Translations under genes and position numbers: made by a program
Shown: in pieces, positions 7,437 through 55,099 of the stretch
Numbering within the stretch: the first letter of the stretch is position 1
Layout of the letters: each line of letters begins with the position of its first letter
DNA from: Armatimonadota bacterium
GTDB taxonomy: Bacteria > Sysuimicrobiota > Sysuimicrobiia > Sysuimicrobiales > Sysuimicrobiaceae
Assembly: GCA_025060455.1 (NCBI GenBank)
Contig: JANXBY010000003.1
Span: 34,719-98,718, forward strand
DNA: 64,000 bases
Direction of reading: 5' to 3'
The notes under the pieces: generated by a model
The model's database searches: none
Seen by the model: only the letters and a program-made list of their open reading frames with translations
Told to the model about the DNA's origin: nothing

Positions 7437-7459
7437 GGTTGCGGGAGGAGGGGTGGAGG

Positions 7460-17854: not shown

Positions 17855-17887
17855 CTGGACGCAGCGCCCCTTTGGATCTCCCTGAAG

Positions 17888-19808: not shown

Positions 19809-19873
19809 GGCTTCCAGCGCCGCATTGTACCGGGCGGGGCGGGGGGCCGGGGAAGCGGTGGCATAATGATGGG

Positions 19874-21034: not shown

Positions 21035-21040
21035 TCCCAC

Positions 21041-32242: not shown

Positions 32243-32665
32243 ATGGGCATTGGCCGGTGGCTACTGGCGGTAGGGGTGTTCGTGGCGGCTGCCGCGGTGT
32301 GGACCGCGGGATACGCAGCCGGCATCCAGCAAGCCTCGCGAGACGCCGTGCCCGTCGCCGCTCAGCCCGTGCAGGCTCCCCTTCAGGAGCTCATCCCGCT
32401 GCCGGGCCCCGGCCAGCAGTTTCCGGGGGCCCGGCCGCAGCCGGGGCAGGGGGACAAGTGCGAGGCCCGGGTATACCTGTTCTTCAACGGCCGGTTCTAC
32501 GAGATGCGGCCCGGCCCAGGGATCGGGCCTGACGGCCGGCCCATGGGCCCCCAGGAGCTGATCCCGCTGCAGCCCGCGCCCTCGCTACCAGGCCCTGGGT
32601 GGCCCGCTCCTCGCGGCAACCCGTTCGCCCCTCCCACCCCGTTCCCGCCCGGGTCGAGGTCGTAG
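32243..32665 (+). CDS. Small Pro-rich secreted or membrane-anchored hypothetical protein with internal repeat
   Basis: ATG lies 6 nt after GGTGGAGGG. N-terminal signal/TM (MGIGRWLLAVGVFVAAAAVW) followed by two copies of a PQELIPL(P/Q) motif, also repeated at the DNA level. Confidence 0.5.
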   Translation: MGIGRWLLAVGVFVAAAAVWTAGYAAGIQQASRDAVPVAAQPVQAPLQELIPLPGPGQQFPGARPQPGQGDKCEARVYLFFNGRFYEMRPGPGIGPDGRPMGPQELIPLQPAPSLPGPGWPAPRGNPFAPPTPFPPGSRS

Positions 32666-32924
32666 CACACGGGGGAGGGACGGCACACCGAGCTCGTCCC
32701 GTGCCTCTGGTACACGACCCAGGAGGAGGAGGCCGCCCGCTTAAACGCCTCGATCTTCCCCGACTCGCGAGTGGAAGCCGTGCACCATCTGCCCGCCGAC
32801 TCACCCAGTGGCCGCGCTGGCTCCGTGGCCATCCTGCGGTTCACCCTGCCGCCTGCCGGTCCGTGTGAGGCATCTGTCCCCGGCCCTCCCCGTGGGCGGC
32901 CCCCGCCGGGGAGAGGAGCGGAGC

Positions 32925-33932
32925 TCACCGGCCTCGTGCGGTGTCCCGCCCCGCCCCGCGGACCGCCTGCACTGTGGCCTCCACGTTGGCCTCCGGCGTG
33001 TCCACGGGGATCACGCAGCCCGGGGCCACCACGTGGCCCACGCCGCCGGTTTGGGCCAGCGCCTCCCGGGCCTCCTCCGCCACCTGCGCGGGATCCCGGT
33101 CCGCGAAGGTGGCCTCGTCCAGCCCACCGCATAGGCAGCCGGAGTAACGAGCCCGCGCCTCCCGCAGGGACGGGGGCGTCCGTCGGTCGTGCCAGTTCAG
33201 GGCGTGGACCGGGTAGCCTGCCAGAAGGTCGAAGTAGGGCCGGTCACCGTGGGCGTGGAGCAACAGCACCTCTGCGCCCGCCGCAGCTTCCAGCACCCGT
33301 AGGTCGTAGGGCCGCCCAAACACCTCGTACTCCTCCTCCGTGACCGCGGCGGGGCAGGCCATCTGCGTGGCGAAGAACAGCCCGTCGGCACCTGCGCTGA
33401 GACACTCGGCGGCGAAGCGGGCGGTGACCTCGGTGATCACCTCCAGGCCCTGGTGCAACGCTTCGGGCTGCTCCCGGAGGTATCGGACCACCGCCTGGTC
33501 TCCGGACAGGGTCCTGGCCACCGTGAGGGGGCTGAACACCGTCGCGAGGACTGGCACCTCACCCCCCACGGCTTGGCGGATGAGCCGCAACGCCTTCAGC
33601 TCGCGGCCGTACGCCCCCGCGGTAACGTCCAGGCGCCGGAGGCGCGCCCAGTCCGCCGCCTTCTTCACCGGCCGGTCCACGTAGGTGCGCACGCCCTCCC
33701 GGTTCGGACGGTAAGCCGCCCGCAGGCCCCAGTCGTCCCCGTAGTAGCCGCTCGCGGGGGTCACCTTCAGCAGGTCGAACCGGAACCGGCGCCAGAAGGC
33801 CACGTGGGCCTCGGCCATGGTGTCCGCCCGGTGGTCTTCACCCGGAAAGTGGCGCCACAAGGCCACCGGCGGCAGGTCCGCCACTTGTCCCCGCAGCGCC
33901 GCCCGCACCCGGTCCCAGTGCACCACGTCCAT
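32925..33932 (-). CDS. Uroporphyrinogen decarboxylase (URO-D) family protein (MtaA/CmuA-like methyltransferase fold)
   Basis: URO-D fold motifs (MDVVHWDRVRAALRGQVADLPPVALWRHF...). The track ORF carries about 120 aa of spurious N-terminal extension. The ATG at 33932 is immediately preceded by AGGAGG. Confidence 0.6.
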   Translation of the reverse strand: MDVVHWDRVRAALRGQVADLPPVALWRHFPGEDHRADTMAEAHVAFWRRFRFDLLKVTPASGYYGDDWGLRAAYRPNREGVRTYVDRPVKKAADWARLRRLDVTAGAYGRELKALRLIRQAVGGEVPVLATVFSPLTVARTLSGDQAVVRYLREQPEALHQGLEVITEVTARFAAECLSAGADGLFFATQMACPAAVTEEEYEVFGRPYDLRVLEAAAGAEVLLLHAHGDRPYFDLLAGYPVHALNWHDRRTPPSLREARARYSGCLCGGLDEATFADRDPAQVAEEAREALAQTGGVGHVVAPGCVIPVDTPEANVEATVQAVRGAGRDTARGR

Positions 33933-33946
33933 CCTCCTATGGCCGC

Positions 33947-34411
33947 TCAGAGGTCCTTCGCCCGGTACACCATGTACGTACGGTAGCCCGCGCGTTCCCA
34001 GAACGCCTCGGCCTGTGGGTTGCCCACGGCCACCGTGAGTTCCACCCGCCGCACCCCCTGCCGTCGCAGCCACGCCTCGATGCGGTCGAGCATCGCCCGC
34101 CCGATCCCCTGTCCCCGGTAGCCCTCCCGGGTGTACACGTCCTGGATGTAGCCCCGGCGCCGCTGCCGGAAGAAGGCCGGCAACAAGGTGATGCGCCCCA
34201 CCGCAAGGCCCACCAGCTGGCCCTGGCTCTCCGCCACCACCACCAGCACGTCGTCCCGGCCCAGCAGGTGGACCAGGTACTCCTCGTACGCCCGCTGCCA
34301 CGTGCGGCTGAGGGCGAACGCGCCGTCCAGCCGCTCATGCAGCGTGGCCAGCTCTCCCCACAGCTCCACCAGGGCCGGAACATCCCGCGGCTCCGCGGGC
34401 CGGATCTGCAC
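33947..34411 (-). CDS. GNAT family N-acetyltransferase
   Basis: Acetyl-CoA binding motif QGQLVGLAV...RGQGIGRAML. The start is uncertain (GTG 34411, TTG 34417 or GTG 34429). The track ORF is over-extended. Confidence 0.6.
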   Translation of the reverse strand: MQIRPAEPRDVPALVELWGELATLHERLDGAFALSRTWQRAYEEYLVHLLGRDDVLVVVAESQGQLVGLAVGRITLLPAFFRQRRRGYIQDVYTREGYRGQGIGRAMLDRIEAWLRRQGVRRVELTVAVGNPQAEAFWERAGYRTYMVYRAKDL

Positions 34412-36979: not shown

Positions 36980-37160
36980 CGCGGCCACCGACCCTCTCCC
37001 ATCCGGACTGTACCGTCGGCCCCGGCTTCGCCCTTTGGCTGGACCGGGTCCACCGCGCCGCAGACCGTGCGCGGGTCGCGGGCTCGCACCCCGTGGTGCC
37101 TACCGCCGGTCGGGAATCGGGGACCGTGCGGCCCCCTCACCCTGCCCCGAAGGTCGTGCT
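36980..37160 (-). ncRNA. FMN riboswitch (RFN element)
   Basis: Minus-sense sequence matches the RFN consensus blocks CUUCGGGGCAGGGUGA...AUUCCCGACCGGCGGUAG...GCCCG.GACCCG...GCGGUGGA...CCGACGGUACAGUCCGGAUGGGAGAGGG. Confidence 0.8.
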
Positions 37161-37209
37161 CGCTGGTCGCCTCGATCCTACCGCGCTCCGGGCGCGGCGG
37201 CAAGCCGCT

Positions 37210-38136
37210 TCACACCCCGAAGACCCGGCGGACGTAGTCGCGGTTGCGGGCCGCGGAGGCCAGGGTGTCGGTGTCCTCCGTGACCACCCGGTCCTGCTCC
37301 ACCACCAGCCAGCCGCGGTAGCCGGCTGCCTGCAGGCAACCCGCGATGGCCGGGAGGTCCACCGACCCACAGCCCAGCTCCACGAACGTGCCCTGTTTGG
37401 CTACCTCCGCGTAGGCGAGCCCCTGCGCCAGCAGTTGCCGGAGGCGGGGGACGTCTACGTCCTTCAGGTGCACGTGGTTGATGCGGGCGGCATGCCTCCG
37501 CGCCACCTCCACGGGGTCGCCGCCCCCGAACAGCAGGTGGCCGGTGTCCAGGCACAGCCCGACCACCTCGGGGTCTGTCTGGGACAGCAACGCCTCCACC
37601 TCCTCGGGGTTCTCCACGTACGTCCCCCCGTGAGGGTGGAAGGCCACCTGGAGCCCGTACGCCTGCCGCACCAGCCGGGCCAGCCGGCTGGCACGTTCCC
37701 CGTAGCCTGGCCACTCGTCCGGGGCGAGCCCGCACGTCCGGGTGAGCTCCACGCGACCTGCGGCCTGGGCCCGGGCTTCGTCCCCCGCGTCCGCGAACAC
37801 CACGCAGCTTCCGCCGCACCGGGCCAGCAGCTCTGAGGTGCGGCGCACCTCCACCTCCGCCCGGCCGAAGGATTCCGGGTCCCGCAGGGGCAGTGGTACG
37901 AACGCCGCCACCAGCTGCAGCCCGCGGGCCCGCAGGGCGTCCTGGAGCCGGTGGGGGTCTGCGGGCAGAAACCCCCACGGGCCCAGCTCCGTACCTTCGT
38001 AGCCCGCCTGGCTCATCTCGTCCAGCACCCGCTCCCACCGCAGCTGGGGGCCCCATCCGGGGATCTCGCACACACCCCAGCTGATGGGAGCCGAAGCCAC
38101 TCGGATCGTGCCCACGTGCACCTCCGTCAGGACCAT
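37210..38136 (-). CDS. iolE: Inosose dehydratase (xylose isomerase-like TIM barrel)
   Basis: Blocks shared with B. subtilis IolE: ASAPISWGV, HPHGGTYVEN, TDPEVVGLCLDTGH, INHVHLKDV, GWLVVEQD. The track ORF is over-extended upstream. Confidence 0.65.
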   Translation of the reverse strand: MVLTEVHVGTIRVASAPISWGVCEIPGWGPQLRWERVLDEMSQAGYEGTELGPWGFLPADPHRLQDALRARGLQLVAAFVPLPLRDPESFGRAEVEVRRTSELLARCGGSCVVFADAGDEARAQAAGRVELTRTCGLAPDEWPGYGERASRLARLVRQAYGLQVAFHPHGGTYVENPEEVEALLSQTDPEVVGLCLDTGHLLFGGGDPVEVARRHAARINHVHLKDVDVPRLRQLLAQGLAYAEVAKQGTFVELGCGSVDLPAIAGCLQAAGYRGWLVVEQDRVVTEDTDTLASAARNRDYVRRVFGV

Positions 38137-38164
38137 CCCCAAAAACGCGGCCGCGATTTTGGGG
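38137..38164. promoter_or_regulatory. Near-perfect 28-nt palindrome CCCCAAAAACGCGGCCGCGATTTTGGGG in the divergent iolE/iolB intergenic region (candidate operator)
   Basis: Directly abuts the iolE start. Shares its core with the motif at 24583..24612. Confidence 0.35.
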
Positions 38165-38258
38165 ACGCCGCTCTCCCGCCGCACCTTGACAGCTAGTTCC
38201 GTTCGCGCGTCGGGTGGCTGGCCCCTGCGTGCACTACAATCGGCAGCGGGAGGAGGCC

Positions 38259-39155
38259 GTGCCCTGGAAGACGCCCCAGGACTTCCGCATCGAGCCGGTC
38301 CGCCCACGCCCTCAGGACGGGGTGGTGGTGCGGGTCACGCCACAGCAGGCGGGCTGGGAGCTGCTGGGCTTCGAGGTACGCCGGCTGCCGCCGGGCGGGC
38401 GGTGGGAGCACCACACGGGTGACTGCGAGACGGTGCTGGTGTGGCTGGGCGGCCGGGCCGGCGTCCGGTCGGACCGGGGCCGGTGGGACCATGTGGGCCG
38501 GCGCCGGGATCCCTTTGACGGGATGCCATACGCCCTCTACCTGCCTCCCCGCACGGAGTTCGAGGTGGTGGCGGAGTCGGACGGTGCGGAGCTGGCGTGG
38601 GGGTGGGCGCCCGCGGAAGGGCGCTTCCCGCCCCGCCTGGTCACGCCGGCGGACGTGGAGATCGAGGTGCGGGGAGGCCACAACGCCACCCGCCAGATCA
38701 ACGGCATCGTCCCGCCCGGTTTCCCGTGCGAGCGGCTGGTGTGCGTGGAGGTGTACACGCCGGGGGGGAACTGGTCCAGCTACCCGCCCCACAAGCACGA
38801 CGTCCACCGGGTGGACCCCTCGGGGCGGGTGGTGGAGGCAGACCTGGAGGAGGTGTACTTTTACAAGTTCGACCGGGCGGAGGGCTTCGCCCTGCAGCGG
38901 ATCTACGCGCACGACGGCTCCTTCGACGTGGCGGTGGTGGCGCGTCAGGACGACCTGGTGCTGGTCCCGTGCGGGTACCACCCCGTGTGCGCGGCCTACG
39001 GCTACACCTGCTACTACCTGAACGTGCTGGCGGGCTCCGCGCAGAGCCTGGCCAACTCCGAGGACCCCGCGCACGCCTGGGTTCGCTCCACCTGGACGGA
39101 GCGGGACCCTCGGGTGCCCGTGGTGACCCATGCCATGGAGGACCGGAATGGATGA
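38259..39155 (+). CDS. iolB: 5-deoxy-glucuronate isomerase
   Basis: IolB C-terminal blocks VEVYTPGGNWSSYPPHKHD, PCGYHPVCAAYGYTCYYLNVLAG, EDPAHAWV. GTG 38259 follows GGGAGGAGG. An alternative GTG lies at 38214. Confidence 0.8.
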   Translation: MPWKTPQDFRIEPVRPRPQDGVVVRVTPQQAGWELLGFEVRRLPPGGRWEHHTGDCETVLVWLGGRAGVRSDRGRWDHVGRRRDPFDGMPYALYLPPRTEFEVVAESDGAELAWGWAPAEGRFPPRLVTPADVEIEVRGGHNATRQINGIVPPGFPCERLVCVEVYTPGGNWSSYPPHKHDVHRVDPSGRVVEADLEEVYFYKFDRAEGFALQRIYAHDGSFDVAVVARQDDLVLVPCGYHPVCAAYGYTCYYLNVLAGSAQSLANSEDPAHAWVRSTWTERDPRVPVVTHAMEDRNG

Positions 39156-39234
39156 CATGTACCAGGCCAGCACAAAGCCCCTGTCCCACACGTCAGCGTG
39201 GTGACCCATGCCATGGAGGACCGGAATGGATGAC
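39119..39234 (+). repeat. Perfect 38-nt direct repeat (CGTGGTGACCCATGCCATGGAGGACCGGAATGGATGAC) flanking a 40-nt lower-GC spacer at the iolB/iolC junction
   Basis: Copies at 39119..39156 and 39197..39234. Copy 1 encodes the iolB C-terminus and stop. Copy 2 carries the iolC RBS (GGAGG) and ATG. Confidence 0.85.
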
Positions 39235-40185
39235 CGCCGGTACGACGTCCTGGCCATGGGCCGGTGCGGGATCGACCTGTACAGCAACGACGTGGGCGCT
39301 CCCTTCGTGGAGATCCGCAGCTTTGCCGCGTACGTGGGCGGGTGTCCCACCAACGTTAGCGTGGGCACGCGGAGGCTGGGGCTGCGCAGCGCGCTGCTGA
39401 CCGCGGTGGGGGACGACCCGGTGGGGGAGTTCGTGCTGCACTTCCTTCGCCGGGAGGGCGTGGACATCCAGTTCGTCCCCCGAAAGCGGGGGCGGCGCAC
39501 GGGGGCCGTGGTGCTGGGCATCGAGCCGCCCGACCGCTTCCCGCTGGTCTTCTACCGCGACAACGCCGCGGACCTGGGGCTGGACCTGGAGGACGTCTGC
39601 CGCGCGCCGGTGGAGGCCAGCCGGGTGTTGTTCTTGACGGGCACGGGCCTCACCGCCGAGCCCAGCCGCACGGCCACGCTGTTCGCCGCGGAACGGGCGG
39701 TGGCGGCGGGCACGCGGGTAGTGGTGGACCTGGACTACCGCGCCAGCCTTTGGCCCGACGCCCGCGCCTACGGGGTGAACGTGCGGGCGCTCGTGCGGTG
39801 GGCGGAGGTGGTGGTGGGCAACGAGGAGGAGCTGCACGCGGCCACAGGAAGGGAAGGGGTTCAGGGCGCGGCGGGTGCCCTGCTGGAACTGGGCCCCAAG
39901 GTGGTGGTGGCCAAGCTGGGCGCCGGGGGGTCCGCGGTGTTCACCCGGGAAGGCCAGCGGGTGGACGTGCCGCCGTTCCCCGTGGAGGTGTACAAGGTGC
40001 TGGGGGCCGGAGACGCCTTCGCCAGCGGGTTGCTGTACGGGTGGTTGCGGGGCTGGGACTGGTACCGGGCGGCGCGGCTGGGCAACGCGTGCGGGGCCAT
40101 CGTGGTGACGCGGCACGGCTGCGCGAACTTCATGCCGTACGAGGAGGAGGCGCTGCGCTTCGTGGAGGAGCGGGGAGGGTTCTGA
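39226..40185 (+). CDS. iolC: 5-dehydro-2-deoxygluconokinase (PfkB family)
   Basis: PfkB signatures (GRCGIDLYS, VLGAGDAFASGLLYGWL). ATG 39226 lies 6 nt after GGAGG. The track start 39208 lies inside the repeat. Confidence 0.8.
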   Translation: MDDRRYDVLAMGRCGIDLYSNDVGAPFVEIRSFAAYVGGCPTNVSVGTRRLGLRSALLTAVGDDPVGEFVLHFLRREGVDIQFVPRKRGRRTGAVVLGIEPPDRFPLVFYRDNAADLGLDLEDVCRAPVEASRVLFLTGTGLTAEPSRTATLFAAERAVAAGTRVVVDLDYRASLWPDARAYGVNVRALVRWAEVVVGNEEELHAATGREGVQGAAGALLELGPKVVVAKLGAGGSAVFTREGQRVDVPPFPVEVYKVLGAGDAFASGLLYGWLRGWDWYRAARLGNACGAIVVTRHGCANFMPYEEEALRFVEERGGF

Positions 40186-40186
40186 G

Positions 40187-40957
40187 GTGGCGAAGGCGGG
40201 GCGGCCCGACGGCGTGCCGTCCGTGGTGCGGGCGGTGCGCATCCTCGAAGCGGTGGGCAACGCGGTCCGGCCGCCCACCCTGGGCGAGCTGGCCAGGTCT
40301 TTGGGGATCCCCAAGAGCACCACCCACGACCTGTGCGCCACCTTGGTGCAGGAACGGCTCCTGTCGCGGTCCGCGGACGGCCGGTTCCGCCTCGGGGTCC
40401 GCGTGCTGGAGCTGTACCGGGCGTACGACGCCGCCTCCGACCTGTCCGCGGCGTTCGCGGAGGTGTGCGAGGAGCTGTTGCCACGCCACGAAGAGACCTT
40501 GGTGCTGTCGGTGCTGGACGGCCCGGAGGTGGTATACGTGGCCTGCCGGAACGGCACCCAGCCCATTGCGGTGAACTACCGCATCGGCCTGCGGCTACCT
40601 GCCCACTGCACCGCCACCGGCAAGGCGATCCTAAGCGCGCTGCCGGAACAACAGGTGCGCCAGCTGTTCGCGTGCGCAGAGCTCCCACGTCCCACCCGGC
40701 GGAGCGTGGGGTCTGTAGACGAACTGGTGGAGGAGCTGGTCCGGACGCGGCAGCGAGGCTACTCCGTGGACGACGAGGAGACGGTGGAGGGGATGTGCTG
40801 CGTGGGGGCGCCCGTGTACACGCGGAGTGGCGTCTCCGCAGGGGTGGCTTTCAGCACCGTGAAGGCCCGGCTCACCCCGAGCCGGCTGGAGGAGCTGGCC
40901 CGTCAGGTCACGGGACTGGCCCGGCGGCTGTCCGAGAGGCTGGGGGCGCGCCCGTGA
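40187..40957 (+). CDS. IclR family transcriptional regulator
   Basis: IclR HTH (LGELARSLGIPKSTTHDLCATLVQERLL) and a C-terminal effector domain. GTG lies 1 nt after the iolC stop, with GGGGAGGG upstream. Confidence 0.8.
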   Translation: MAKAGRPDGVPSVVRAVRILEAVGNAVRPPTLGELARSLGIPKSTTHDLCATLVQERLLSRSADGRFRLGVRVLELYRAYDAASDLSAAFAEVCEELLPRHEETLVLSVLDGPEVVYVACRNGTQPIAVNYRIGLRLPAHCTATGKAILSALPEQQVRQLFACAELPRPTRRSVGSVDELVEELVRTRQRGYSVDDEETVEGMCCVGAPVYTRSGVSAGVAFSTVKARLTPSRLEELARQVTGLARRLSERLGARP

Positions 40958-40967
40958 GCCGGGCAGC

Positions 40968-40990
40968 TTGACAGCGGGCACAGGCCTGTG
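40968..40990 (+). promoter_or_regulatory. Putative -35 TTGACA overlapping the perfect palindrome CACAGGCCTGTG upstream of iolD
   Basis: TTGACA at 40968-40973. The 12-nt palindrome at 40979-40990 sits in the spacer. GAACACRG is repeated twice further downstream. Confidence 0.3.
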
Positions 40991-41055
40991 TTTGTTTGGT
41001 CGCGCGGTCTCCGCGAACACGGAACCTGTCCGTAAATCCGAACACAGGAGGAACC

Positions 41056-42918
41056 GTGAGTACCCTGCGACTGACGGCGGCCCAGGCCCTGGTGAGGTTC
41101 CTGGCCGCCCAGCGGGTGGAGCGGGACGGCCGCACGGTGCCCTTCTTCGCGGGGGTGTGGGGAATCTTCGGCCACGGCAACGTGGCAGGGATCGGGCAGG
41201 CCCTGCAGGAGTCCCCCCAGCTGCGGTTTTACTTCGCCCGCAACGAGCAGGCCATGGTGCACGCGGCGGCCGCGTTCGCGAAGGCGTCGCGGCGGCTGCG
41301 CACCTTCGCGTGCACCTCGTCCATCGGGCCGGGGGCCACCAACATGGTCACCGGGGCCGCGGGGGCCACCATCAACCGCGTGCCCGTGCTGTTGCTGCCG
41401 GGCGACGTCTTCGCCCGGCGGAACGTGGCCCCAGTGTTACAGCAGCTGGAAGCCGGCTGGTCGCTGGACGTTTCCGTGAACGACTGTTTCAAGCCGGTGT
41501 CGCGCTACTGGGACCGCATCAACCGCCCGGACCAACTGCCGTGGGCGTTGATGGAGGCCATGCGGGTTCTCACCTCGCCGGCGGACACGGGTGCGGTGAC
41601 CCTTGCGTTCCCTCAGGACGTGCAGGCAGAGGCGTGGGACTACCCCGCGGAGCTGTTTGAGCCGCGCACCTGGCGGATCCCGCGTCCCGCGCCGGAGCGG
41701 GAGGTGTTGCGGAAGGCGGCCCGGCGCATCCGGGCGAGTCGGAGGCCGTTGGTGGTGGCGGGCGGAGGCGTGTGGTTCAGCGAGGCCGAGCCCGCGCTAC
41801 GCGCCCTGGTGGAGGCCACCGGAATCCCGGTGGCGGAGACCCAGGCGGGCAAGGGCAGCCTCCCGTGGGATCACCCTCAGAACGTGGGCGCGGTCGGGGT
41901 TACCGGGAGCCTGGCCGCCAACCGGCTGGCGCGGACCGCGGACCTCGTGGTGGGGGTGGGCACGGCGTGGGACGACTTCACCACCGCCTCCAAGACCCTG
42001 TTCGAAGGGTCGGGCGTGCAGTTCGTGAACTTGAACGTGTGCGAGCGCGACGCGCGCAAGCACGGGGCCCTGGCGGTGGTGGCGGACGCCCGCGTGGCGC
42101 TGGAAGGGCTGGCCGAGCTGTTGCAGGGCTACCGGGTGGAGCCGTCGTACGCGGAGGAAGTCGCCCGCCTGCGGGAGGCGTGGGACGCAGAGGTGCAGCG
42201 CCTCGTCAGCCAGCGTCACGGCCCCCCCATGGCCCAGGCGGAGGTGATCGGGGTGGTGAACGCCTTCGCCCGGCCGGAAGACGTGGTGGTGTGTGCGGCG
42301 GGGAGCCTGCCCGGAGACCTGCACAAGCTGTGGCGGGCGCGCCAGCCGGGCACGTACCACCTCGAGTACGGCTACTCCTGCATGGGGTACGAGATCCCCG
42401 GCGGGCTGGGAGTGAAGATGGCGGATCCCAGCCGCGAGGTGTACGTGCTGGTGGGCGACGGCTCGTACCTGATGATGCCCAGCGAGATCACCACCTCCCT
42501 GCAGGAGGGCCACAAGCTCACCGTGGTGCTCCTGGACAACCACGGGTACGCCAGCATCGGCGGGCTGTCGGAGTCTCTGGGACTGGGAGGGTTCGGCACC
42601 AAGCACCGGTTCCGCAACCCCGCCACCGGCCAGCTGGACGGCGACCTCCTGCCCATCGACCTGGCCGCGAACGCGGCGAGTCTAGGTGCGTACGTGGTGC
42701 GGGCGCGGACGAGGGAGGAGCTGTGGAAGGCCCTGGAAGAGGCGAGGGCGCAGCCGCGGACCACGGTGGTGGTGGTGGAGGTGGACCGGCACGCCCGGGT
42801 GCCGGCCTACGAGGCGTGGTGGGACGTGCCCGTGGCAGAGGTTTCCGCCATGGCCGCGGTGCGCGAGGCGCGGGCGGAGTACGAGAAGCACCGGGCGAAA
42901 GAGCGGTTTTACCTGTAG
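41056..42918 (+). CDS. iolD: 3D-(3,5/4)-trihydroxycyclohexane-1,2-dione hydrolase (ThDP-dependent)
   Basis: ThDP-enzyme N, M and C domains. N-terminal LRLTAAQALVRFLAAQ is typical of IolD. GTG lies 4 nt after AGGAGG. The ThDP-binding motif GDGSYLM is present. Confidence 0.85.
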   Translation: MSTLRLTAAQALVRFLAAQRVERDGRTVPFFAGVWGIFGHGNVAGIGQALQESPQLRFYFARNEQAMVHAAAAFAKASRRLRTFACTSSIGPGATNMVTGAAGATINRVPVLLLPGDVFARRNVAPVLQQLEAGWSLDVSVNDCFKPVSRYWDRINRPDQLPWALMEAMRVLTSPADTGAVTLAFPQDVQAEAWDYPAELFEPRTWRIPRPAPEREVLRKAARRIRASRRPLVVAGGGVWFSEAEPALRALVEATGIPVAETQAGKGSLPWDHPQNVGAVGVTGSLAANRLARTADLVVGVGTAWDDFTTASKTLFEGSGVQFVNLNVCERDARKHGALAVVADARVALEGLAELLQGYRVEPSYAEEVARLREAWDAEVQRLVSQRHGPPMAQAEVIGVVNAFARPEDVVVCAAGSLPGDLHKLWRARQPGTYHLEYGYSCMGYEIPGGLGVKMADPSREVYVLVGDGSYLMMPSEITTSLQEGHKLTVVLLDNHGYASIGGLSESLGLGGFGTKHRFRNPATGQLDGDLLPIDLAANAASLGAYVVRARTREELWKALEEARAQPRTTVVVVEVDRHARVPAYEAWWDVPVAEVSAMAAVREARAEYEKHRAKERFYL

Positions 42919-42973
42919 ACCGACACCCTTAGGCGACTCAAGGCACCCAGCATTCGAAGGCAGGGGAGGCAAC

Positions 42974-44005
42974 GTGGCCGAGCTGGGACGAGAGCTCCGG
43001 GTGGGGGTGGTGGGGGCCGGCGGGATGGGCACCCGCCACGCCCGCAACCTCCTGCGGGTGCCAGGGGTCCGGGTGGGGGCTGTGGCGGACGCCGACCCCG
43101 GGCGCGCGGAAGCCCTCGCCAAGGACTGCGGGGCTTCCCGTGTGTACGCGGACGGCTACGAGCTCGTGCTAGACCCAGAGGTGGACGCGGTGGTGGTTGC
43201 CAGCCCCGATCCCACCCACGCGAGCTACGTGCTGGCGTGTCTGGAAGCCCGCAAACCGGTGTTCTGCGAGAAGCCCCTGGCCACCCACGCTGCGGAGGCC
43301 CGGGCCGTGGTGGAACAGGAGGTGTCGTTGGGCCGACGCCTCGTGCAGGTGGGCTTCCAGCGCCGCTACGACCCCGACCTCCAGGCGCTGTGGCGGCTGA
43401 TCCGGAACGGAGTGGTGGGAAAGCCGGTGCTGTACCGCACGTGGCACCGGAACGCGCGGGCCGCGTACGGCCCCCGCAGCAACGCCGAGGTCCTGGTGAA
43501 CTCCGCCATCCACGACCTGGACGAGGTCCGGTGGCTGTCCGGTCAGGAGGTGCGCGCGGTGCGCTCGGTGGTGGGCTGCCGGGTGGACCGGTCGCTGGCC
43601 GAGGGGGTGTTCGACCTGCAGCTGATCCAGCTCGAGCTCGGCGACGGTGCCCTGGCCCTGGTGGAGTTGAACCTGTCCGCGGGCTACGGGTACGAGGTGG
43701 GCGCGGAGGTGTGCGGGGAGCGGGGCTCCATCACCGCGGGGTTGCCGGCTGGAGCGTTCGTGCGGGTTGAGGGCGACGCGCGGGTGCACGTGCCCGCGGA
43801 CTGGCTGGAGCGGTTCGACGCGGCGTACGCCGCCGAGGTGGCCGCGTGGGTCGAGCACGTGCGCGCAGGCCAAGCCTGGCCGCACGCGTGGGACGGGTAC
43901 GCCTCGCTGGTGGTGGCCGAGGCGTGCGCAGAGGCACTGGCGACGGGCAGGCCGGTGTCTCTAACTCCGGAGCCGCCTCCCCCTCTCTACGTCACGCCGG
44001 CTTGA
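42974..44005 (+). CDS. iolG: myo-inositol 2-dehydrogenase (Gfo/Idh/MocA family)
   Basis: Rossmann VGVVGAGGMGTRHARNL and the Gfo/Idh/MocA C-domain. GTG lies 4 nt after GGGGAGG. Confidence 0.75.
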   Translation: MAELGRELRVGVVGAGGMGTRHARNLLRVPGVRVGAVADADPGRAEALAKDCGASRVYADGYELVLDPEVDAVVVASPDPTHASYVLACLEARKPVFCEKPLATHAAEARAVVEQEVSLGRRLVQVGFQRRYDPDLQALWRLIRNGVVGKPVLYRTWHRNARAAYGPRSNAEVLVNSAIHDLDEVRWLSGQEVRAVRSVVGCRVDRSLAEGVFDLQLIQLELGDGALALVELNLSAGYGYEVGAEVCGERGSITAGLPAGAFVRVEGDARVHVPADWLERFDAAYAAEVAAWVEHVRAGQAWPHAWDGYASLVVAEACAEALATGRPVSLTPEPPPPLYVTPA

Positions 44006-44015
44006 GGCCAGGGGT

Positions 44016-44981
44016 ATGTGGGTCGGACTGATGACAGATAGCCTGCGGTCCGAGCCGCGACCGCGGGTGTTCGAGCGCTGTGCGCGGTGGGGGATCCGCT
44101 CGGTGGAACTCGGTACGGGGAACTTTTCCGCGGCGCCCCACTTGGACCTTCAGCAGCTCCTCCGTGACCCCGGTGCACGGGCGCAGCTCCTGCGGGAGCT
44201 ACGAGACCACGGGCTCGTCATCAGCGCCCTGAACTGCAGCGGCAACCCCCTTCACCCTCGTCCGGAGGAGGGCGCCCGGCAGGCCCGGGTGGTGCGCGAC
44301 ACCATCGCGCTGGCCGGCCTGCTCGGGGTGGACACGGTGGTGACCATGTCGGGCTGCCCGGGTGGGCCCAACGGGGGCGACCCGAACTGGGTGCTGTCCG
44401 GCTGGCCGCGGGAGTTCCAGGAAGTCCTGGACTGGCAGTGGCAGCAGAAGGTCATCCCCTTCTGGCAGGAGATGGCGGAGTGGGCACAGCGGTGCGGGGT
44501 GCGGCGGATCGCGGTGGAGATGCACCCGGGCCAGTGCGTGTACAACCCCGCCACCCTGCTCCGGCTCCGGGAGGCGGTGGGCCCCACCGTGGGGGCCAAC
44601 CTAGATCCCAGCCACCTGTTCTGGCAGGGCATCGACGTCCTGGCCACGGTGGAGCGGCTGGGCCCGGCCATCTTTCACGTGCACGCGAAGGACACGTGGG
44701 TGGACGAGGCACGGGTCCGTCAGGACGGGGTGCTGTACCTGTCCACGGGTTGGCCTCCCTCACAGGGTCCGTGGACCTTCCGGACCCTGGGCCTCGGCCA
44801 CGACACCTTCTTCTGGCAGCGGTTCGTGGACGCCCTCCGGCGGGTGGGATACCGCGGGGCCCTGAGCGTGGAGCACGAGGATCCCTACCTGGATGCCGCA
44901 GACGGCGTGGCCCGCGCCGTGGAGGTGCTGCGGGCGTGCTTGCCCCGGCAGGCGGAGGGGGGCGACCTCACCGACTCTTAA
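44016..44981 (+). CDS. Sugar phosphate isomerase/epimerase (xylose isomerase-like TIM barrel; IolI/IolH-type)
   Basis: TIM-barrel motifs (RIAVEMHPGQ, FHVHAKD, SVEHEDP). It cannot be assigned to IolI versus IolH from sequence alone. Confidence 0.65.
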   Translation: MWVGLMTDSLRSEPRPRVFERCARWGIRSVELGTGNFSAAPHLDLQQLLRDPGARAQLLRELRDHGLVISALNCSGNPLHPRPEEGARQARVVRDTIALAGLLGVDTVVTMSGCPGGPNGGDPNWVLSGWPREFQEVLDWQWQQKVIPFWQEMAEWAQRCGVRRIAVEMHPGQCVYNPATLLRLREAVGPTVGANLDPSHLFWQGIDVLATVERLGPAIFHVHAKDTWVDEARVRQDGVLYLSTGWPPSQGPWTFRTLGLGHDTFFWQRFVDALRRVGYRGALSVEHEDPYLDAADGVARAVEVLRACLPRQAEGGDLTDS

Positions 44982-45842: not shown

Positions 45843-46862
45843 GTGAGGCGGTGGTCAGTGCTGTTGGTGGGTATGGCGGTGCTCGTGGTGGGCTCGGTGC
45901 CGGTGGGTGCGCAGGCCCGCCGGATCGTGGTGTACTCTGCACTCCCCGACCTGGAGACGTCCCTGATCAACCGGGAGTTCACCCGCAGGACGGGGATCGC
46001 GGTGGAGGCCCTCAGCGTAGCCGCCGCGGGCACCTTGGCGGCCCGGATCCGGGCGGAGCGGGACCGTCCGCGGGCCGACGTGTTCGTGGGCGGGTCCGCG
46101 GACTTCCACGCACCCCTGGCCCGGGAAGGCCTCCTGGTTCCCTACCGGTCTCCCGTGGCACGGGAGGCACGGGTCAGCCCCGCCTTCTTGGACCGGGACG
46201 GGTACTGGCACGGGTGGTACCTCGGGATCCTGTCCATCATCGTGAACACCGAGCGGTGGGACCGGGAGATGGCTCCGCGGCGGGTTCCCAAGCCCGCCAC
46301 CTGGGACGACCTCCTGCGGCCGGAGTTCCGGGGACACTTCATCATGCCCAGCCCGGTGACCACCGGGGCCGGCTACATCTTCGTGGCCGGGCAGATCTTC
46401 CGCCTGGGGGAAGACCGGGCGTGGGCGTACCTGCGCGAGCTGAACCGCAACGCAGCCCAGTACACGCCCACCGCACCGGGCACCATCACCCTGCTGGAAC
46501 GGGGGGAGGCCGTCGTGGCCATGATGTGGGCGCACGAGGGGATCGGGGCGAGGCGGGTGCGCTTCCAGCCACTGGAGGTGATCGTGCCGCCCGACACCGC
46601 CTTTGAGATCGGCGCGGTCTCCATCCTGCGGGGCGGGCCCAACCCGGAGGGCGCCCGCGCGTACGTGGACTTTCTCATGACCCGCACGCCGCAGGACATC
46701 AACGCCCGCTACGGGTTCCGGTACCCGGTGCGGACGGACGTGGAGCCTCCCGCAGGCGCGCCGCCCTTCGAGTCGGTGAAGTTCGTCCGGTACGACCGGG
46801 AGTGGGCGATCACCAACGCGGAGCGGGTGCGGGAGCGGTGGACCCGGGAGATCGGCCGGTAG
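45843..46862 (+). CDS. ABC transporter substrate-binding protein (iron(III)/FbpA-type family 1 SBP)
   Basis: Signal peptide and SBP fold. GTG 45843 follows GGGAGGTGAGG, overlapping the HAD stop. Confidence 0.7.
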   Translation: MRRWSVLLVGMAVLVVGSVPVGAQARRIVVYSALPDLETSLINREFTRRTGIAVEALSVAAAGTLAARIRAERDRPRADVFVGGSADFHAPLAREGLLVPYRSPVAREARVSPAFLDRDGYWHGWYLGILSIIVNTERWDREMAPRRVPKPATWDDLLRPEFRGHFIMPSPVTTGAGYIFVAGQIFRLGEDRAWAYLRELNRNAAQYTPTAPGTITLLERGEAVVAMMWAHEGIGARRVRFQPLEVIVPPDTAFEIGAVSILRGGPNPEGARAYVDFLMTRTPQDINARYGFRYPVRTDVEPPAGAPPFESVKFVRYDREWAITNAERVRERWTREIGR

Positions 46863-46876
46863 TCGAATCCGGGCGG

Positions 46877-48529
46877 ATGCTGGCTGGCCGCGTGGGCGCC
46901 TTGGTTCCGGGGGTCGAGGCCCGGAGGCAGCTGGCCGACCCAGGCCTCGCCCTCGCGTTCCTCGCGGGAGCCTTCGCCCTGGCGGTGTTCGTGCTGTACC
47001 CCACGGTGCGCGTGCTGGCTTACCCGAGCCTGCAGGACTACCTGAGCATCCCGCACAGCGTCCGGTGGGTGCAGGCAGCCCGCAACAGCCTCCTGAGCGC
47101 CGTGCTGTCCACCACCACGGCGGTGGCGGTCGGCCTGGCCTTCGCCTTTGCCACCACCCGCCCGGACGTGCCCGGGAGCCGGTTCTTCCGTGCCGTGGCT
47201 CTGCTGCCGCTGTTCGCGCCGCCGTTCATGGTGGCGTTCTCGTACATCCTGCTGTTCGGCCGGCAGGGCCTGGTAACCCGCCACCTGCTGGGCCTGGACG
47301 TGAACATCTTCGGCCCCCACGGGCTGTGGCTGGTGCAGACGGTGGCCTTCTTCCCCCTGGCCATGCTGGTGATCGTAGGCGTGCTGGAGAGCATCAGTCC
47401 CAGCCTGGAGCAGGCGGCGCGGAACCTGGGCGCGGACGACTGGCAGGTGACCCGCACCGTGACCCTGGCCCTGGCGCGGCCGGGGATCGCGGGAGCGGCC
47501 CTGGTCGTGGCCATCTCGGTTCTGGCGGACTTCGGCAACGCCGTCGTGATCGCAGGCGGCTGGCCCCTGCTGGCCACGGAGGCGTGGTTCCGAATGGAGG
47601 GCATGGCGGACCTGCGAGGCGCCTCCCTCGTGGTCGCCATGCTGGTGGTCCCCACCACGGCCCTGTTCCTGCTGGAACGGTACTGGGTCGGCCGGAAGCG
47701 GTACACCACCGTGACCGGACGCGGGGGACGGCTGGAGCGCCCGCCCACGTACCCGCCCCTCAAGTGGGCGAGTTTCGCCGTATGCGGGGTGACCAGCATC
47801 CTGGTGTTGCTGGTGTACCTGGGCGTGGTGGCGGGGGCCTTCACCGCGGTGTGGGGACGGGACTGGTCGTTCACCCTGGACCACTGGCGCCTGGCTGCAG
47901 ACCGGACTCCGTCCCTGTGGGCGAGCCTCCGGGTGGCCGCCGGCGCGGGCGCGGTCACCGCGGTGGCGGGCATCCTCCTGGCGTTCCTCGCGGGCCGTCC
48001 GCTGCCCCTGCGAAGGGCCCTGGACTTCCTGGCGGTGTTGCCAGGCGCGCTGCCGGGGGTGTTCGTGGGCGTGGGCTTCGTGTTGGCCTTCAACCGGCCT
48101 CCCCTGGAGCTGGTGGGAACACCGTGGATCCTCATCCTGGCCCTGGCCTTCTGGCACCTGCCCCTGGGGTACCAGGCGGCGGCGGCCCAGCTGCAACAGA
48201 TCGACCGGTCCATCGAGGAGGCGGCCAGCAACCTGGGCGCCCGGGGCCTGCACCTCCTGCGGGATGTCTACCTGCCCCTTTTGAGCCGCGCGTTCGTGGA
48301 GGGGTTCACGGTCTCTTTCGTGCGTGCGGTGACCAACGTGAGCATCGCGGTGTTCCTCGTCTCCCCGGGCAACGTGGTGGCCACCTTCGCCATCCTCAAC
48401 ATGATCGGAAACGGGATCTGGGGCGGGGCTGCCGCCCTCACCACCATGCTCCTGCTGGTGACCTTCGCGGTCCTGGCCGGCGCCCGACTGGTAGTGGGGC
48501 GGGCCCTCCGCCCGGCGGGGGTGGGGTAG
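46877..48529 (+). CDS. ABC transporter permease, two-domain iron(III)-type (FbpB-like)
   Basis: About 550 aa with two MetI-like domains. Confidence 0.8.
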   Translation: MLAGRVGALVPGVEARRQLADPGLALAFLAGAFALAVFVLYPTVRVLAYPSLQDYLSIPHSVRWVQAARNSLLSAVLSTTTAVAVGLAFAFATTRPDVPGSRFFRAVALLPLFAPPFMVAFSYILLFGRQGLVTRHLLGLDVNIFGPHGLWLVQTVAFFPLAMLVIVGVLESISPSLEQAARNLGADDWQVTRTVTLALARPGIAGAALVVAISVLADFGNAVVIAGGWPLLATEAWFRMEGMADLRGASLVVAMLVVPTTALFLLERYWVGRKRYTTVTGRGGRLERPPTYPPLKWASFAVCGVTSILVLLVYLGVVAGAFTAVWGRDWSFTLDHWRLAADRTPSLWASLRVAAGAGAVTAVAGILLAFLAGRPLPLRRALDFLAVLPGALPGVFVGVGFVLAFNRPPLELVGTPWILILALAFWHLPLGYQAAAAQLQQIDRSIEEAASNLGARGLHLLRDVYLPLLSRAFVEGFTVSFVRAVTNVSIAVFLVSPGNVVATFAILNMIGNGIWGGAAALTTMLLLVTFAVLAGARLVVGRALRPAGVG

Positions 48530-48532
48530 GCG

Positions 48533-49582
48533 ATGGCGGTGCACCTCCGATTGGTGGACGTGGTCAAGCGGTTCGGCGCCACCACCGCGGTGGACGGCGT
48601 TTCCCTGGATGTCGAGGAAGGCTGCTTTTTCACCCTCCTGGGTCCTTCCGGCTGCGGGAAGACAACCCTGCTGCGCGTGGTGGCGGGATTCCACCTGCCC
48701 GACCGGGGAGAGGTGTTCTTACGGGACCGGCGGATCACCCACCTGCCCCCGCAAGCCCGGGGGACCGCGATGGTGTTCCAGGAGTACGCCCTGTTCCCCC
48801 ACATGACGGTGGAGGAAAACGTGGGCTACGGCCTGCGCATGCGGCGGGTCCCCGCAGGCCAGGCGCGGGAGCGTGTGCGGCGGGTGTTGGAGTTGGTCGG
48901 GCTGGTGGGTCAGGAGCACAAGTACCCGCACCAGCTCAGCGGCGGCCAGCAGCAGCGGGTGGCCCTGGCCCGGGCGCTGGTGGTGGAGCCGGAGGTGTTG
49001 CTCCTGGACGAGCCCCTCAGCAACCTGGACGCAAAGCTGCGGCTGCGGGTCCGCGAGGAGCTGCGGGAGCTCCAGAGGCGTCTCGGGCAGACCACCCTGT
49101 ACGTGACCCACGACCAGGAGGAGGCCCTGGCCCTTTCGGACCGCGTGGCGGTGATGAACGCAGGCCGGGTGCTCCAGGTGGGAACCCCAGAGGAAGTCTA
49201 CCTGCGCCCGCGGAACCGCTTCGTGGCGGAGTTCGTGGGCATGGCCAACTTCGTGCGGGCCCGGTGGGTGGGTCCCGGGCGGGTGCAGGCCGGCGGCATA
49301 GTGCTCCGGGTGGGCGAGGGGAGGACCTCCGGAGGCGACGTGCTGTTGGCGATCCGGCCGGAGGAAGTCCGGGTGCGGACGGAGCCCGGGGACGGTGGCC
49401 CTAACCTCCTCCAGGGCCGTGTGCAGTCGGTCACCTTCCTCGGGCCGGTCCGGCGGTGTACCGTGGAAACAGACGGGCTGCGGTGGGTGGTGGACGTGCA
49501 GCCCGACGTCCGGGTGGAGGCGGCTCAGGAGGTTTACCTGGAGGTGCCGCCCGAGCGGCTGCGCGTGGTGGAAGAAGCATAG
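48533..49582 (+). CDS. ABC transporter ATP-binding protein (FbpC/PotA-like)
   Basis: Walker A GPSGCGKTT, signature LSGGQQQRVALARAL, Walker B LLLDEPLSNLD, and a C-terminal TOBE-like domain. Confidence 0.85.
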   Translation: MAVHLRLVDVVKRFGATTAVDGVSLDVEEGCFFTLLGPSGCGKTTLLRVVAGFHLPDRGEVFLRDRRITHLPPQARGTAMVFQEYALFPHMTVEENVGYGLRMRRVPAGQARERVRRVLELVGLVGQEHKYPHQLSGGQQQRVALARALVVEPEVLLLDEPLSNLDAKLRLRVREELRELQRRLGQTTLYVTHDQEEALALSDRVAVMNAGRVLQVGTPEEVYLRPRNRFVAEFVGMANFVRARWVGPGRVQAGGIVLRVGEGRTSGGDVLLAIRPEEVRVRTEPGDGGPNLLQGRVQSVTFLGPVRRCTVETDGLRWVVDVQPDVRVEAAQEVYLEVPPERLRVVEEA

Positions 49583-49615
49583 GCCGGTCAGTCACATCGG
49601 GAGGGGGGATTCACA

Positions 49616-50635: not shown

Positions 50636-50640
50636 CGGAC

Positions 50641-55091: not shown

Positions 55092-55099
55092 GAGGACCT

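Follow-up and report, generated by a model that had tools for sequence, protein, structure and literature searches.

The iolB/iolC junction of the strain studied here, which belongs to an uncultured bacterium, ancestrally …GGAGGACCGGAATGGATGAC…, has received a 78-bp insertion in which 40 bp of foreign or untraceable DNA lie between perfect 38-bp duplications of the target. Because the duplication matches a CRISPR repeat in size and the insert a spacer, our analysis tentatively favors off-target integration of a spacer by Cas1-Cas2 at a non-CRISPR site, which we propose as the best reading while stopping short of calling it probable. The window referred to below is the whole 64-kb stretch of DNA analyzed.

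A repeat-spacer-repeat unit between iolB and iolC

The two genes belong to an inositol-catabolism cluster. They were identified by scores above the curated NCBIfam equivalog cut-offs, and the other members by Pfam matches.

37210..44981, no strand assigned: inositol-catabolism cluster (Pfam matches; syntenic with relatives)
37210-38136, minus strand: AP_endonuc_2 (Pfam)
38259..39155, plus strand: iolB, 5-deoxy-glucuronate isomerase, 298 aa (TIGR04378, 321 bits, cut-off 205)
39226..40185, plus strand: iolC, 5-dehydro-2-deoxygluconokinase, 319 aa (TIGR04382, 392 bits, cut-off 300)
40187-40957: IclR regulator (Pfam)
40996-42918: TPP enzyme, iolD-like (Pfam)
ending at 44005: GFO/IDH/MocA oxidoreductase (Pfam)
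44016-44981: second AP_endonuc_2 (Pfam)

The IolB translation is identical to NCBI protein P0121, an identity by which the GTG start at 38259 was assigned, and the gene ends with a TGA codon at 39153-39155. The 319-aa IolC product read from 39226 equals NCBI protein P0124, and the products of the relatives are likewise 319 aa long. The gene order of the cluster is identical in L002, L003 and L005.

The sequence CGTGGTGACCCATGCCATGGAGGACCGGAATGGATGAC is present twice, in copies that start 78 nt apart and occupy 39119-39156 and 39197-39234; they agree at 38/38 positions, as the initial annotation had reported. This pair is the longest exact repeat of the window, the runner-up measuring 20 nt, and about 1.6e-11 such 38-nt pairs are expected by chance. 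The 40 nt between the copies (39157-39196) occur only once in the window, even when up to 3 mismatches are allowed. The full unit, R-I-R, is 116 nt long and is located at the iolB stop/iolC start.

39119..39156, plus strand: R1, first 38-nt target copy, encoding the IolB C terminus, (V)VTHAMEDRNG-stop
39157..39196, no strand assigned: inserted spacer, 40 nt, ATGTACCAGGCCAGCACAAAGCCCCTGTCCCACACGTCAG
39197..39234, plus strand: R2, second 38-nt target copy, with the functional iolC Shine-Dalgarno (SD) sequence (GGAGG, 39215-39219) and ATG (39226)

R1 contains an orphaned copy of the iolC SD (GGAGG, 39137-39141) and of its ATG (39148), and the IolB C-terminal tail that it encodes is conserved in relatives. 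Given a 1-nt ambiguity at each boundary, the duplication measures 36 to 38 bp, and the spacer would be 41 to 42 nt long if a boundary C is counted in. In the 37-nt version of the duplication, the 5′ border is a G and the 3′ border a C, as in many CRISPR repeats. The spacer had been described as clearly lower in GC than the genome, put at about 70%. This description does not hold, as its GC content is 60.0% compared with 60.5% for the repeat, and 6% of all 40-nt segments do not exceed 60% (mean 71.1%, sd 6.3%). Low GC was thus discarded as a mark of foreign origin.

Slipped-strand tandem duplication of 78 nt, one of the origins suggested in the initial annotation, would place two perfect copies just 78 nt apart, and a locus of another lineage, L070, does have a true tandem duplication at this junction. 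However, slippage predicts an R-X-R-X arrangement, whereas the spacer shares 17.5% identity with the 40 nt that follow R2 and 35% with the 40 nt preceding R1, both at the chance level. Tandem Repeats Finder reports nothing at the junction. Since the spacer is unrelated to both flanks, the structure is not a tandem duplication, and we regard the likelihood of slippage as close to negligible.

Relatives retain the uninterrupted junction

An 8-nt stop/start overlap of the ATGGATGA type is present in all ten same-lineage loci (L001-L009 and L088), in the variant form GTGGGTGA in L005-L007. The ancestral overlap between iolB and iolC that had been reconstructed from the window is therefore found as such in its relatives, and the conservation of these 8 nt suggests that the ancestral junction was of the stop/start overlap coupling type. 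The lineage relatives have the un-duplicated site; their alignment to the window leaves a clean 78-nt gap, and the spacer is absent. L088, an independent Logan assembly and the sole other same-species sequence compared, is 99.6% identical to the window upstream of the site and 100% downstream, with one R and no spacer. Between 38335 and 39544, the 78-nt insertion is the only difference between the two. Alignment of the junction to relatives, the check proposed with the initial annotation, thus yielded the un-duplicated form, including in a strain that is 99.6 to 100% identical. The complete absence of such a form, named there as a refutation, was not observed. Of its 38 positions, R has 4 mismatches to its counterpart in L001, a 93% relative, while within the window its two copies show none.

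Three further observations were made in the comparison. An apparent 23-nt length difference of L004 was dismissed, as it merely corresponds to runs of N. Other lineages (L070) have true tandem duplications with a period of 78 nt at this junction. In L043, an unrelated MAG locus, another perfect 38-nt repeat surrounds an unrelated spacer of 35 nt.

Since the relatives are un-duplicated, including the near-identical L088, the alignments indicate that the insertion is a very recent, strain-specific event with a 38-bp target-site duplication, or else an error of one assembly. The structure is known from a single metagenome-assembled contig. In the second case, an assembly or library artifact, or a rare variant path in the MAG consensus, would have been recorded while the dominant real sequence is un-duplicated. 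L088, identical around the site but devoid of the insertion, would be explained in this manner, and the source contig does belong to a MAG. The L043 repeat also measures 38 nt, and this agreement in length might point to a cause in the method (38 = k-1 for k = 39). Nevertheless, the R-I-R unit is only 116 nt long and no de Bruijn loop would form without the R-I and I-R k-mers, so by this reasoning these must come from real spanning reads. Gap-filling errors would copy the flanks, whereas the spacer is unrelated to either flank. There are no Ns and no second structure of this kind within the 64 kb, and both reading frames are exactly preserved, as selection on a real insertion would leave them. 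We therefore consider an artifact distinctly unlikely.

The insertion preserves both enzymes and creates a short upstream ORF

As judged from the reading frames, both enzymes are unchanged by the insertion. The duplicated segment spans the gene junction, and the IolB C terminus and stop as well as the iolC ribosome-binding site and ATG are kept for this reason: copy 1 ends iolB properly, and copy 2 provides the SD and ATG of iolC. As the initial annotation had recognized, the 78 added nt bring with them a second copy of the iolC SD and ATG. The sole new coding feature is an 18-codon upstream ORF (uORF) that starts at the old iolC start position.

39148..39204, plus strand: new 18-codon uORF, MDDMYQASTKPLSHTSAW-stop, from the ATG in R1 to the TGA in R2

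The existence of this uORF had been correctly noted, although it was placed at 39147-39203, off by one nucleotide. The uORF's ATG and the iolB stop overlap as in the ancestral ATGGATGA junction, and its TGA (39202-39204) lies within R2, 21 nt upstream of the iolC ATG. The uORF is in none of the relatives, and its peptide has no homologue among 5.8 billion protein clusters.

Altered translational coupling is a plausible consequence of this arrangement. Ribosomes that end iolB would couple into the uORF and terminate, and iolC would then be translated by reinitiation after the uORF or by fresh initiation on its intact SD. Because uORF coupling would be followed by reinitiation or new initiation, this model predicts that the change in iolC expression is probably slight. 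Predictions of how accessible the iolC SD is gave small and inconsistent differences between the ancestral and derived junctions. No Rfam family matches the junction RNA, and the fold of the junction is no more stable than those of shuffled sequences (z = 0.46).

The inserted DNA has no match in sequence collections

No source of the spacer was found within the 64-kb window, which reaches about 39 kb upstream and about 25 kb downstream of the insertion, and blastn-short of the spacer against the window and 89 loci gave no match elsewhere. An exact 25-mer of the spacer was not found in the genome_contigs and metagenome_contigs collections. In viral contigs, a 32-mer, the two half-spacers and a pattern leaving every third base free were all without match, and the every-third-base-free pattern was also not found in metagenomes. 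blastn of the spacer against phages and plasmids returned chance hits only (E ≥ 0.6). Finally, the six-frame peptides of the spacer were compared with 5.8 billion protein clusters, which include the MAG's own proteins, and no cluster shared three 5-residue words with them, corresponding to at least 7 consecutive residues. Thus, no protospacer, and with it no PAM, was found in viral, genome, metagenome, phage, plasmid or protein collections. Such an orphan is typical for CRISPR spacers; had the DNA been copied from the host's own, mostly coding chromosome, it would be less expected. The lack of a match is common for real spacers and by itself proves nothing.

These searches also bear on two origins suggested in the initial annotation that involve a larger element. 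The insert could be the footprint of an insertion sequence or transposon that generated a long target-site duplication and then lost all but 40 nt. Transposition characteristically leaves a direct target duplication on both sides of the DNA that it inserts, and in a few IS families, for example the IS1634 group, these duplications are long and variable. However, the terminal 12-mers of the spacer match as inverted repeats at only 3/12 positions, and no further copy exists in the window or in the collections. The absence of terminal inverted repeats argues that the insert is not a transposon remnant. Moreover, excision between the duplicates would restore the empty site and leave no footprint, and a deletion of the element that spares both duplicate copies exactly is an ad hoc assumption. 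A mobile-element footprint thus finds no support and appears very improbable.

The same applies to a scar of site-specific recombination, in which an element with a 38-nt attP core equal to R would have integrated to form attL and attR before being almost wholly deleted. Integrase-mediated insertion does yield perfect direct repeats of the core. Nevertheless, the R core occurs in 0 of 2.9 million viral contigs, no integrase gene or element remnant is present nearby, and the target is a protein-coding junction instead of a typical att site. As a second, very precise deletion would be required in addition, this proposal, likewise unsupported, is hardly credible.

Template switching during replication, of the MMBIR/FoSTeS type, needs no dedicated enzyme. 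A stalled 3′ end would jump, copy about 40 nt and return 38 nt behind its departure point. This predicts a P-R-I-R-Q topology with a duplication flanking a templated insert, and it requires no CRISPR system, none being seen in the window. One codon phase of the spacer has a GC3 of 11/13, as if it came from high-GC coding DNA, a weak signal with an estimated p of about 0.16 after correction for the three phases. Against this model, neither the window nor any searched collection holds a template, and no frame of the spacer matches the protein clusters although about 78 to 90% of such a genome is coding. It also gives no reason why both lengths should fall within CRISPR repeat and spacer ranges. 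To our knowledge, bacterial duplications combined with insertions have seldom been reported, in comparison with simple tandem duplications. We therefore place template switching on the unlikely side.

Proposed off-target integration by Cas1-Cas2

Staggered integration followed by gap repair duplicates the repeat of a CRISPR array, and we know of one enzyme system, Cas1-Cas2, that makes repeat-sized duplications around spacer-sized inserts. Neither this system nor template switching figures among the origins suggested in the initial annotation. The 40- to 42-nt insert falls in the general range of CRISPR spacers, while 38 nt is toward the upper end of the common repeat lengths, which counts against this reading. 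In the mechanism that we favor, the two 3′-OH ends of a prespacer of about 40 bp would attack opposite strands of the junction one repeat length apart (36 to 38 bp), and gap repair would duplicate the intervening target. The product would be a repeat-spacer-repeat unit, or “neo-CRISPR.” Insertions inside genes would be lost, and the present one may have survived because its duplication straddles a gene boundary.

Several published observations are relevant to this mechanism. Cas1-Cas2 can perform full-site integration at non-CRISPR sites by attacks one repeat length apart, and the positions attacked are preferentially G/C (PMC6698737). In E. coli, off-target genomic integration can seed new arrays (Nivala, Shipman & Church 2018, as cited by other authors). 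The length of the repeat is set by the distance between the Cas1 active sites, three species having repeats of 28, 36 and 37 bp (PMC7969031), and the duplication of 36 to 38 nt is compatible with known repeat lengths such as 36 and 37 bp. An empty site in close relatives, as expected of an ectopic Cas1-Cas2 product, is present. Against this reading, off-target integration in nature is regarded as rare, and the evidence from the wild as circumstantial only.

The search for a CRISPR system covered the 64-kb window, which is part of a 129.6-kb contig in a larger genome. It contains no CRISPR arrays, and PADLOC matched no Cas protein model among its 43 called proteins, the hits being to generic ATPase-type families. 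R has no match at E ≤ 10 in Rfam, including its CRISPR direct-repeat families. Within this scope, these negative results weigh against the Cas1-Cas2 reading, which predicts a host with Cas1-Cas2 and with repeats of 36 to 38 nt around spacers of about 40 nt. CRISPR goes unmentioned in two papers on Sysuimicrobiota/CSP1-3.

We hold more tentatively the fuller account, in which a natural off-target integration would segregate as a presence/absence polymorphism between strains otherwise identical over 1.2 kb, having been preserved by the junction-straddling duplication and having left a relay uORF behind.

Implications

Should Cas1-Cas2 have made the insertion, it would be among very few natural off-target spacer integrations. 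Such integration has so far been documented mainly in E. coli that over-expresses Cas1-Cas2 and in assays in vitro. In the present case the empty site is known, and the event is thus unambiguous and its borders exact. If true, our interpretation would provide direct evidence from the wild that the CRISPR adaptation machinery mutates the host chromosome outside arrays and seeds repeat-spacer-repeat units there, and it would reveal landing sites that survive selection. It would point both to a mutational cost that CRISPR adaptation imposes on its own host and to a route for seeding new arrays. The features of the junction also yield a search rule, namely, a perfect duplication of repeat length, an orphan insert of spacer length, and an empty site in sister strains. 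Whatever the mechanism, the junction represents a natural experiment on coupling, in which a putatively coupled uORF of 18 codons and then a gap of 21 nt now stand in place of an 8-nt overlap conserved across the lineage. If the structure is an artifact, it would serve as a warning about short repeat-insert-repeat structures in MAGs.

Comparison with known systems

The junction resembles the “neo-CRISPR” units generated by off-target Cas1-Cas2 integration in that a non-CRISPR target is duplicated over a repeat length (36 to 38 bp) around an orphan insert of 40 to 42 bp. Such units are known from Nivala, Shipman & Church 2018, as cited by other authors, and from in vitro work on P. furiosus (PMC6698737). 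With the 37-nt reading, the junction also has a G at the 5′ border and a C at the 3′ border, and a near-identical strain retains the empty site. It differs from such units in being a single one, inside an operon and at a coupled gene junction. It shares with canonical CRISPR arrays the repeat-spacer-repeat geometry and the usual length ranges. In contrast with those arrays, it has only two repeats, no leader, no cas genes nearby and no Rfam CRISPR-DR match; its repeat is the local coding and SD sequence of iolB/iolC, and close relatives lack it. A canonical array was rejected on these grounds, the repeats being two copies of the local junction sequence in a window with no Cas match.

As in the target-site duplications of transposons and insertion sequences, one copy of a directly duplicated target lies on each side of inserted DNA. 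However, the insert is 40 nt long, with neither inverted repeats nor a transposase, and 38 bp greatly exceeds the usual 2 to 14 bp. Templated insertions of the MMBIR/FoSTeS type have the same P-R-I-R-Q topology and need no special sequence features, but no template was found here, and that model leaves the lengths unconstrained. With respect to translation, the ancestral 8-nt overlap is akin to overlap coupling of the ATGA or ATGxxTGA type, and the derived form keeps this overlap into the uORF. Unlike the uORFs of termination-reinitiation systems, the present one is an accident of insertion, unconserved and encoding a peptide without homologue.

A perfect direct repeat at the iolB/iolC junction

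The open reading frames on either side of the junction were assigned to iolB upstream (TIGR04378, 321 bits) and iolC downstream (TIGR04382, 392 bits). The 38-nt direct repeat that the initial annotation had placed between them, around a 40-nt spacer, was seen directly, and its two copies (R1 and R2) are identical. The features of the junction are as follows.

39119-39156: R1, 38 nt, CGTGGTGACCCATGCCATGGAGGACCGGAATGGATGAC, identical to R2 at 38/38 positions
39148-39204: uORF of 18 codons, MDDMYQASTKPLSHTSAW followed by a stop, opened by the orphaned SD-ATG of R1
39153-39155: iolB stop codon, TGA, within R1
39157-39196: spacer, 40 nt, ATGTACCAGGCCAGCACAAAGCCCCTGTCCCACACGTCAG, between R1 and R2
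39197-39234: R2, 38 nt, CGTGGTGACCCATGCCATGGAGGACCGGAATGGATGAC, identical to R1 at 38/38 positions
39215-39219: iolC SD, GGAGG, within R2
39226: iolC ATG, within R2

The repeat is the longest exact one in the 64-kb window, the runner-up being a 20-nt match between two paralogous ABC-ATPase genes, and the chance expectation for such a 38-nt pair, from base composition, is about 1.6e-11. No second copy of the spacer was found in the window with 3 mismatches tolerated. The spacer had been described as clearly lower in GC, but it has 60.0% GC versus 60.5% for the repeat, and 6% of all 40-nt windows of this 71% GC sequence are as low or lower. There is a 1-nt ambiguity at each repeat boundary, where a C fits equally into spacer or duplication; the latter may thus be 36 to 38 nt long and the insert 40 to 42 nt. 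Read as 37 nt (GTGGTGACC…GGATGAC), the duplication has G as its first base and C as its last.

The duplicated arrangement appears recent

Judged by its IolB homologues, the window belongs to the Sysuimicrobiota (GAL15/CSP1-3) lineage, the best named relative being a GAL15/Candidatus Sysuimicrobiota MAG. We compared the orthologous loci of lineage relatives (L001, L002, L003/L004/L009, L005-L007 and L008; IolB identity of 79-93%). Every one of L001-L009 has an 8-nt overlap of iolB and iolC, ATGGATGA or GTGGGTGA, in agreement with the un-duplicated ancestral stop/start overlap proposed initially, and in the alignment the spacer and one repeat copy of the window face a clean gap of 78 nt in all relatives.

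No same-species representative genome was found in the GTDB collection, the closest being at 86% and 83%. Window IolB belongs to the 90% cluster of its best hit, as does an IolB homologue with 1 residue different (P0123), encoded on a single 2.3-kb Logan contig of a near-identical strain (L088, run SRR15826900). L088 is 99.56% identical to the window over 37126-39156 and 100% over 39197-39544. It carries one repeat copy and no spacer, contrary to an arrangement with no un-duplicated form anywhere, which the initial annotation had considered. All nine differences are at or upstream of 38334, and over 38335-39544 the two sequences differ by the 78 nt alone.

Between the window and L001, the 93% relative, the repeat sequence has 4 differences in 38 positions, whereas R1 and R2 are identical to each other. 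Judging from this identity and the empty site in relatives, the structure is derived and arose very recently, at the strain level, by insertion of 78 bp (40 bp of insert and a 38-bp target-site duplication), or else is present solely in this assembly. The insertion is known from a single MAG contig. A minor-variant path or an artefact of assembly would agree with the lack of the insertion in the single other same-species assembly, L088, and with the finding of a second structure, of 38, 35 and 38 nt, in an unrelated MAG (L043). Against an artefact, the whole unit has only 116 nt and must be contained in reads, its spacer resembles neither flank, and the window has neither N nor a further such structure; we regard an artefact as rather unlikely.

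Two runs of N (4281-4411 and 4754-4785) and others elsewhere lie inside iolC and its neighbours in L004, a second GAL15 MAG (GCA_040289805.1). They explain why no iolC was called there, and account for an apparent length difference that we rejected as real.

Both genes remain intact

The repeat comprises the last 11 codons and stop of iolB and the SD, ATG and first two codons of iolC. The IolB tail, …VVTHAMEDRNG, is conserved in relatives and is still closed by R1, and R2 supplies an untouched SD-ATG for the 319-aa IolC, the product annotated by NCBI. The 18-codon uORF of the initial annotation is present, but lies 1 base to the right of where it had been placed. It begins in exactly the overlap with the iolB stop that iolC formerly had, and its stop (39202-39204) is 10 nt ahead of the SD and 21 nt ahead of the iolC ATG. 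On leaving iolB, ribosomes would enter the uORF by coupling, with reinitiation afterwards; alternatively, fresh ribosomes might load on the intact iolC SD. The predicted accessibility of the SD/ATG showed small, inconsistent shifts between the reconstructed ancestral and the derived forms. As this prediction changes little, a mild effect on iolC expression is expected.

Origin of the insert

The spacer shares 17.5% identity with the 40 nt after R2 and 35% with the 40 nt before R1, its best ungapped match within 450 nt on either side (52.5%) is below the mean of random 40-mers, and Tandem Repeats Finder reported no repeat at the junction. Tandem duplication was rejected on these grounds, and the slippage origin suggested initially is very improbable. 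A mobile-element excision footprint left by a transposon, also put forward at that stage, is highly unlikely, as the structure has no terminal inverted repeats and no further copy in the window, and is no recognisable mobile-element remnant. A site-specific recombination (att) scar is hardly credible, since the repeat core had no match among 2.9 million viral contigs; no integrative element carrying the repeat was found in them. An RNA element was also discarded, with no Rfam match and a fold no better than that of shuffled sequence.

A perfect duplicated target around an insert means either fill-in around an inserted fragment or the return of a polymerase to its template. By the first route, two opposite-strand breaks 38 nt apart would be filled in around the fragment; by the second, a polymerase would have quit its template and rejoined 38 nt back. 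Such template switching during replication yields the same topology and needs no CRISPR system, but it predicts a template for the spacer in the DNA of the cell. None was found in the window, nor at the protein level among clusters that include the proteins of this MAG, and we regard it as unlikely.

The exact spacer 25-mer had no match in 596 Gb of representative genomes or in JGI metagenomes. In IMG/VR, the 32-mer, both half-spacers and a pattern leaving every third base free gave no credible match, nor did the latter in metagenomes, and blastn against phage and plasmid collections returned chance-level matches alone. Among 5.8 billion protein clusters, no candidate shared three 5-residue words with the six-frame spacer peptides. 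One codon phase of the spacer has a GC3 of 11/13, a weak signal that hints at a fragment of coding DNA from a high-GC organism.

To our knowledge, Cas1-Cas2, the CRISPR adaptation integrase, is the only characterized machinery that routinely brackets inserts of ~30-45 bp with target duplications of 23-47 bp. The distance between Cas1-Cas2 active sites sets repeat length, with values for E. coli of 28 bp, for E. faecalis of 36 bp and for Synechocystis of 37 bp (PMC7969031). With the Pyrococcus enzyme (P. furiosus), full-site integration also takes place at non-CRISPR sites; the two points of attack are spaced by one repeat length, and G/C is preferred where the enzyme attacks (PMC6698737). Nivala et al. 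2018, as cited by others, reported that spacers can integrate off target in the chromosome of E. coli and that such events can spawn new arrays. We tentatively read the 78-bp insertion as a possible off-target spacer integration by Cas1-Cas2. The orphan insert fits a spacer from an unsampled mobile element, and fits less well a copy of the mostly coding chromosome of the host. Its location at the iolB/iolC junction may reflect survivorship, because only a duplication that straddles a gene boundary would leave both genes intact. The central prediction of off-target integration is a host that encodes Cas1-Cas2 and whose arrays combine repeats of 36-38 nt with spacers of about 40 nt. No CRISPR array was detected in the 64-kb window, and no Cas protein model matched its 43 called proteins. 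The unit itself was rejected as a canonical array: it has two repeat copies only, and the "repeat" is the local gene junction.

Repeats in other loci and remaining features of the window

The L043 structure (1211-1321 of this Anaerolineae locus, MAG JAIMBB010000075.1) is intergenic and has the same architecture, with two copies of a perfect 38-nt direct repeat, GTCTGACAAGAGGCTGGTGATACTTGACGCTAACAACG, around a 35-nt spacer unrelated to both flanks (20-23% identity). The shared repeat length of 38 nt is notable; the structure may represent another ectopic integration, a mini-array or an artefact of the method. In a Caldilineaceae MAG (L070, 3989-4210), a near-perfect 74-nt tandem repeat of about 4 copies lies just upstream of iolC, and in it the ATG and first codons of iolC recur together with upstream sequence. 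As read from the sequence, a short ORF starts in each complete ATG-bearing copy and runs to an ATGA overlap with the ATG of the following copy. This would be an independent, true tandem duplication of an iolC start in another phylum, by a different mechanism. The perfect 31-nt direct repeat of L026 (1011-1187, period 88) has a spacer 75% identical to the following sequence, and is thus a diverging tandem duplication; L042 (4781-4886) has a perfect 25-nt direct repeat with an unrelated 56-nt spacer.

A tandem pair of ABC-transporter gene sets occupies 46802-53921 of the window, in the order permease, ATPase (48533-49582), solute-binding protein, permease, ATPase (52857-53921). Exact matches of 17-20 nt, all offset by 4339 nt, identify the ATPase genes as paralogues. 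The sole RNA gene found in the window is the following.

55099-55191, minus strand: tRNA-Ser, long-arm, anticodon GCT

A crude GC3-based caller found no convincing ORF in 7436-9191, 15933-17888, 19808-21134 and 32332-33947, stretches that may hold genes of atypical composition or noncoding elements. Window IolB and IolC are in NCBI under MCS7234444/5.1 and MDW8155042/3.1, labeled "Armatimonadota bacterium," and the nearest named relatives are labeled GAL15/Candidatus Sysuimicrobiota (CSP1-3), a phylum earlier suggested to be part of Armatimonadota according to one paper. Cluster tables give the source of the window as a 129.6-kb contig of an NCBI MAG with the Armatimonadota label, a taxonomic name that is probably out of date.

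Comparison with known systems

The structure belongs neither to the canonical CRISPR array class nor to IS remnants or tandem duplications. Off-target integration is already a known phenomenon, and the attribution of this insertion to it is unproven; a natural case of ectopic integration for which the empty site is available, and which neatly preserves a coupled junction, would be of specialist interest. With an empty site in relatives, and with repeat and spacer lengths that agree with the general ranges, the structure most resembles an off-target Cas1-Cas2 integration product.
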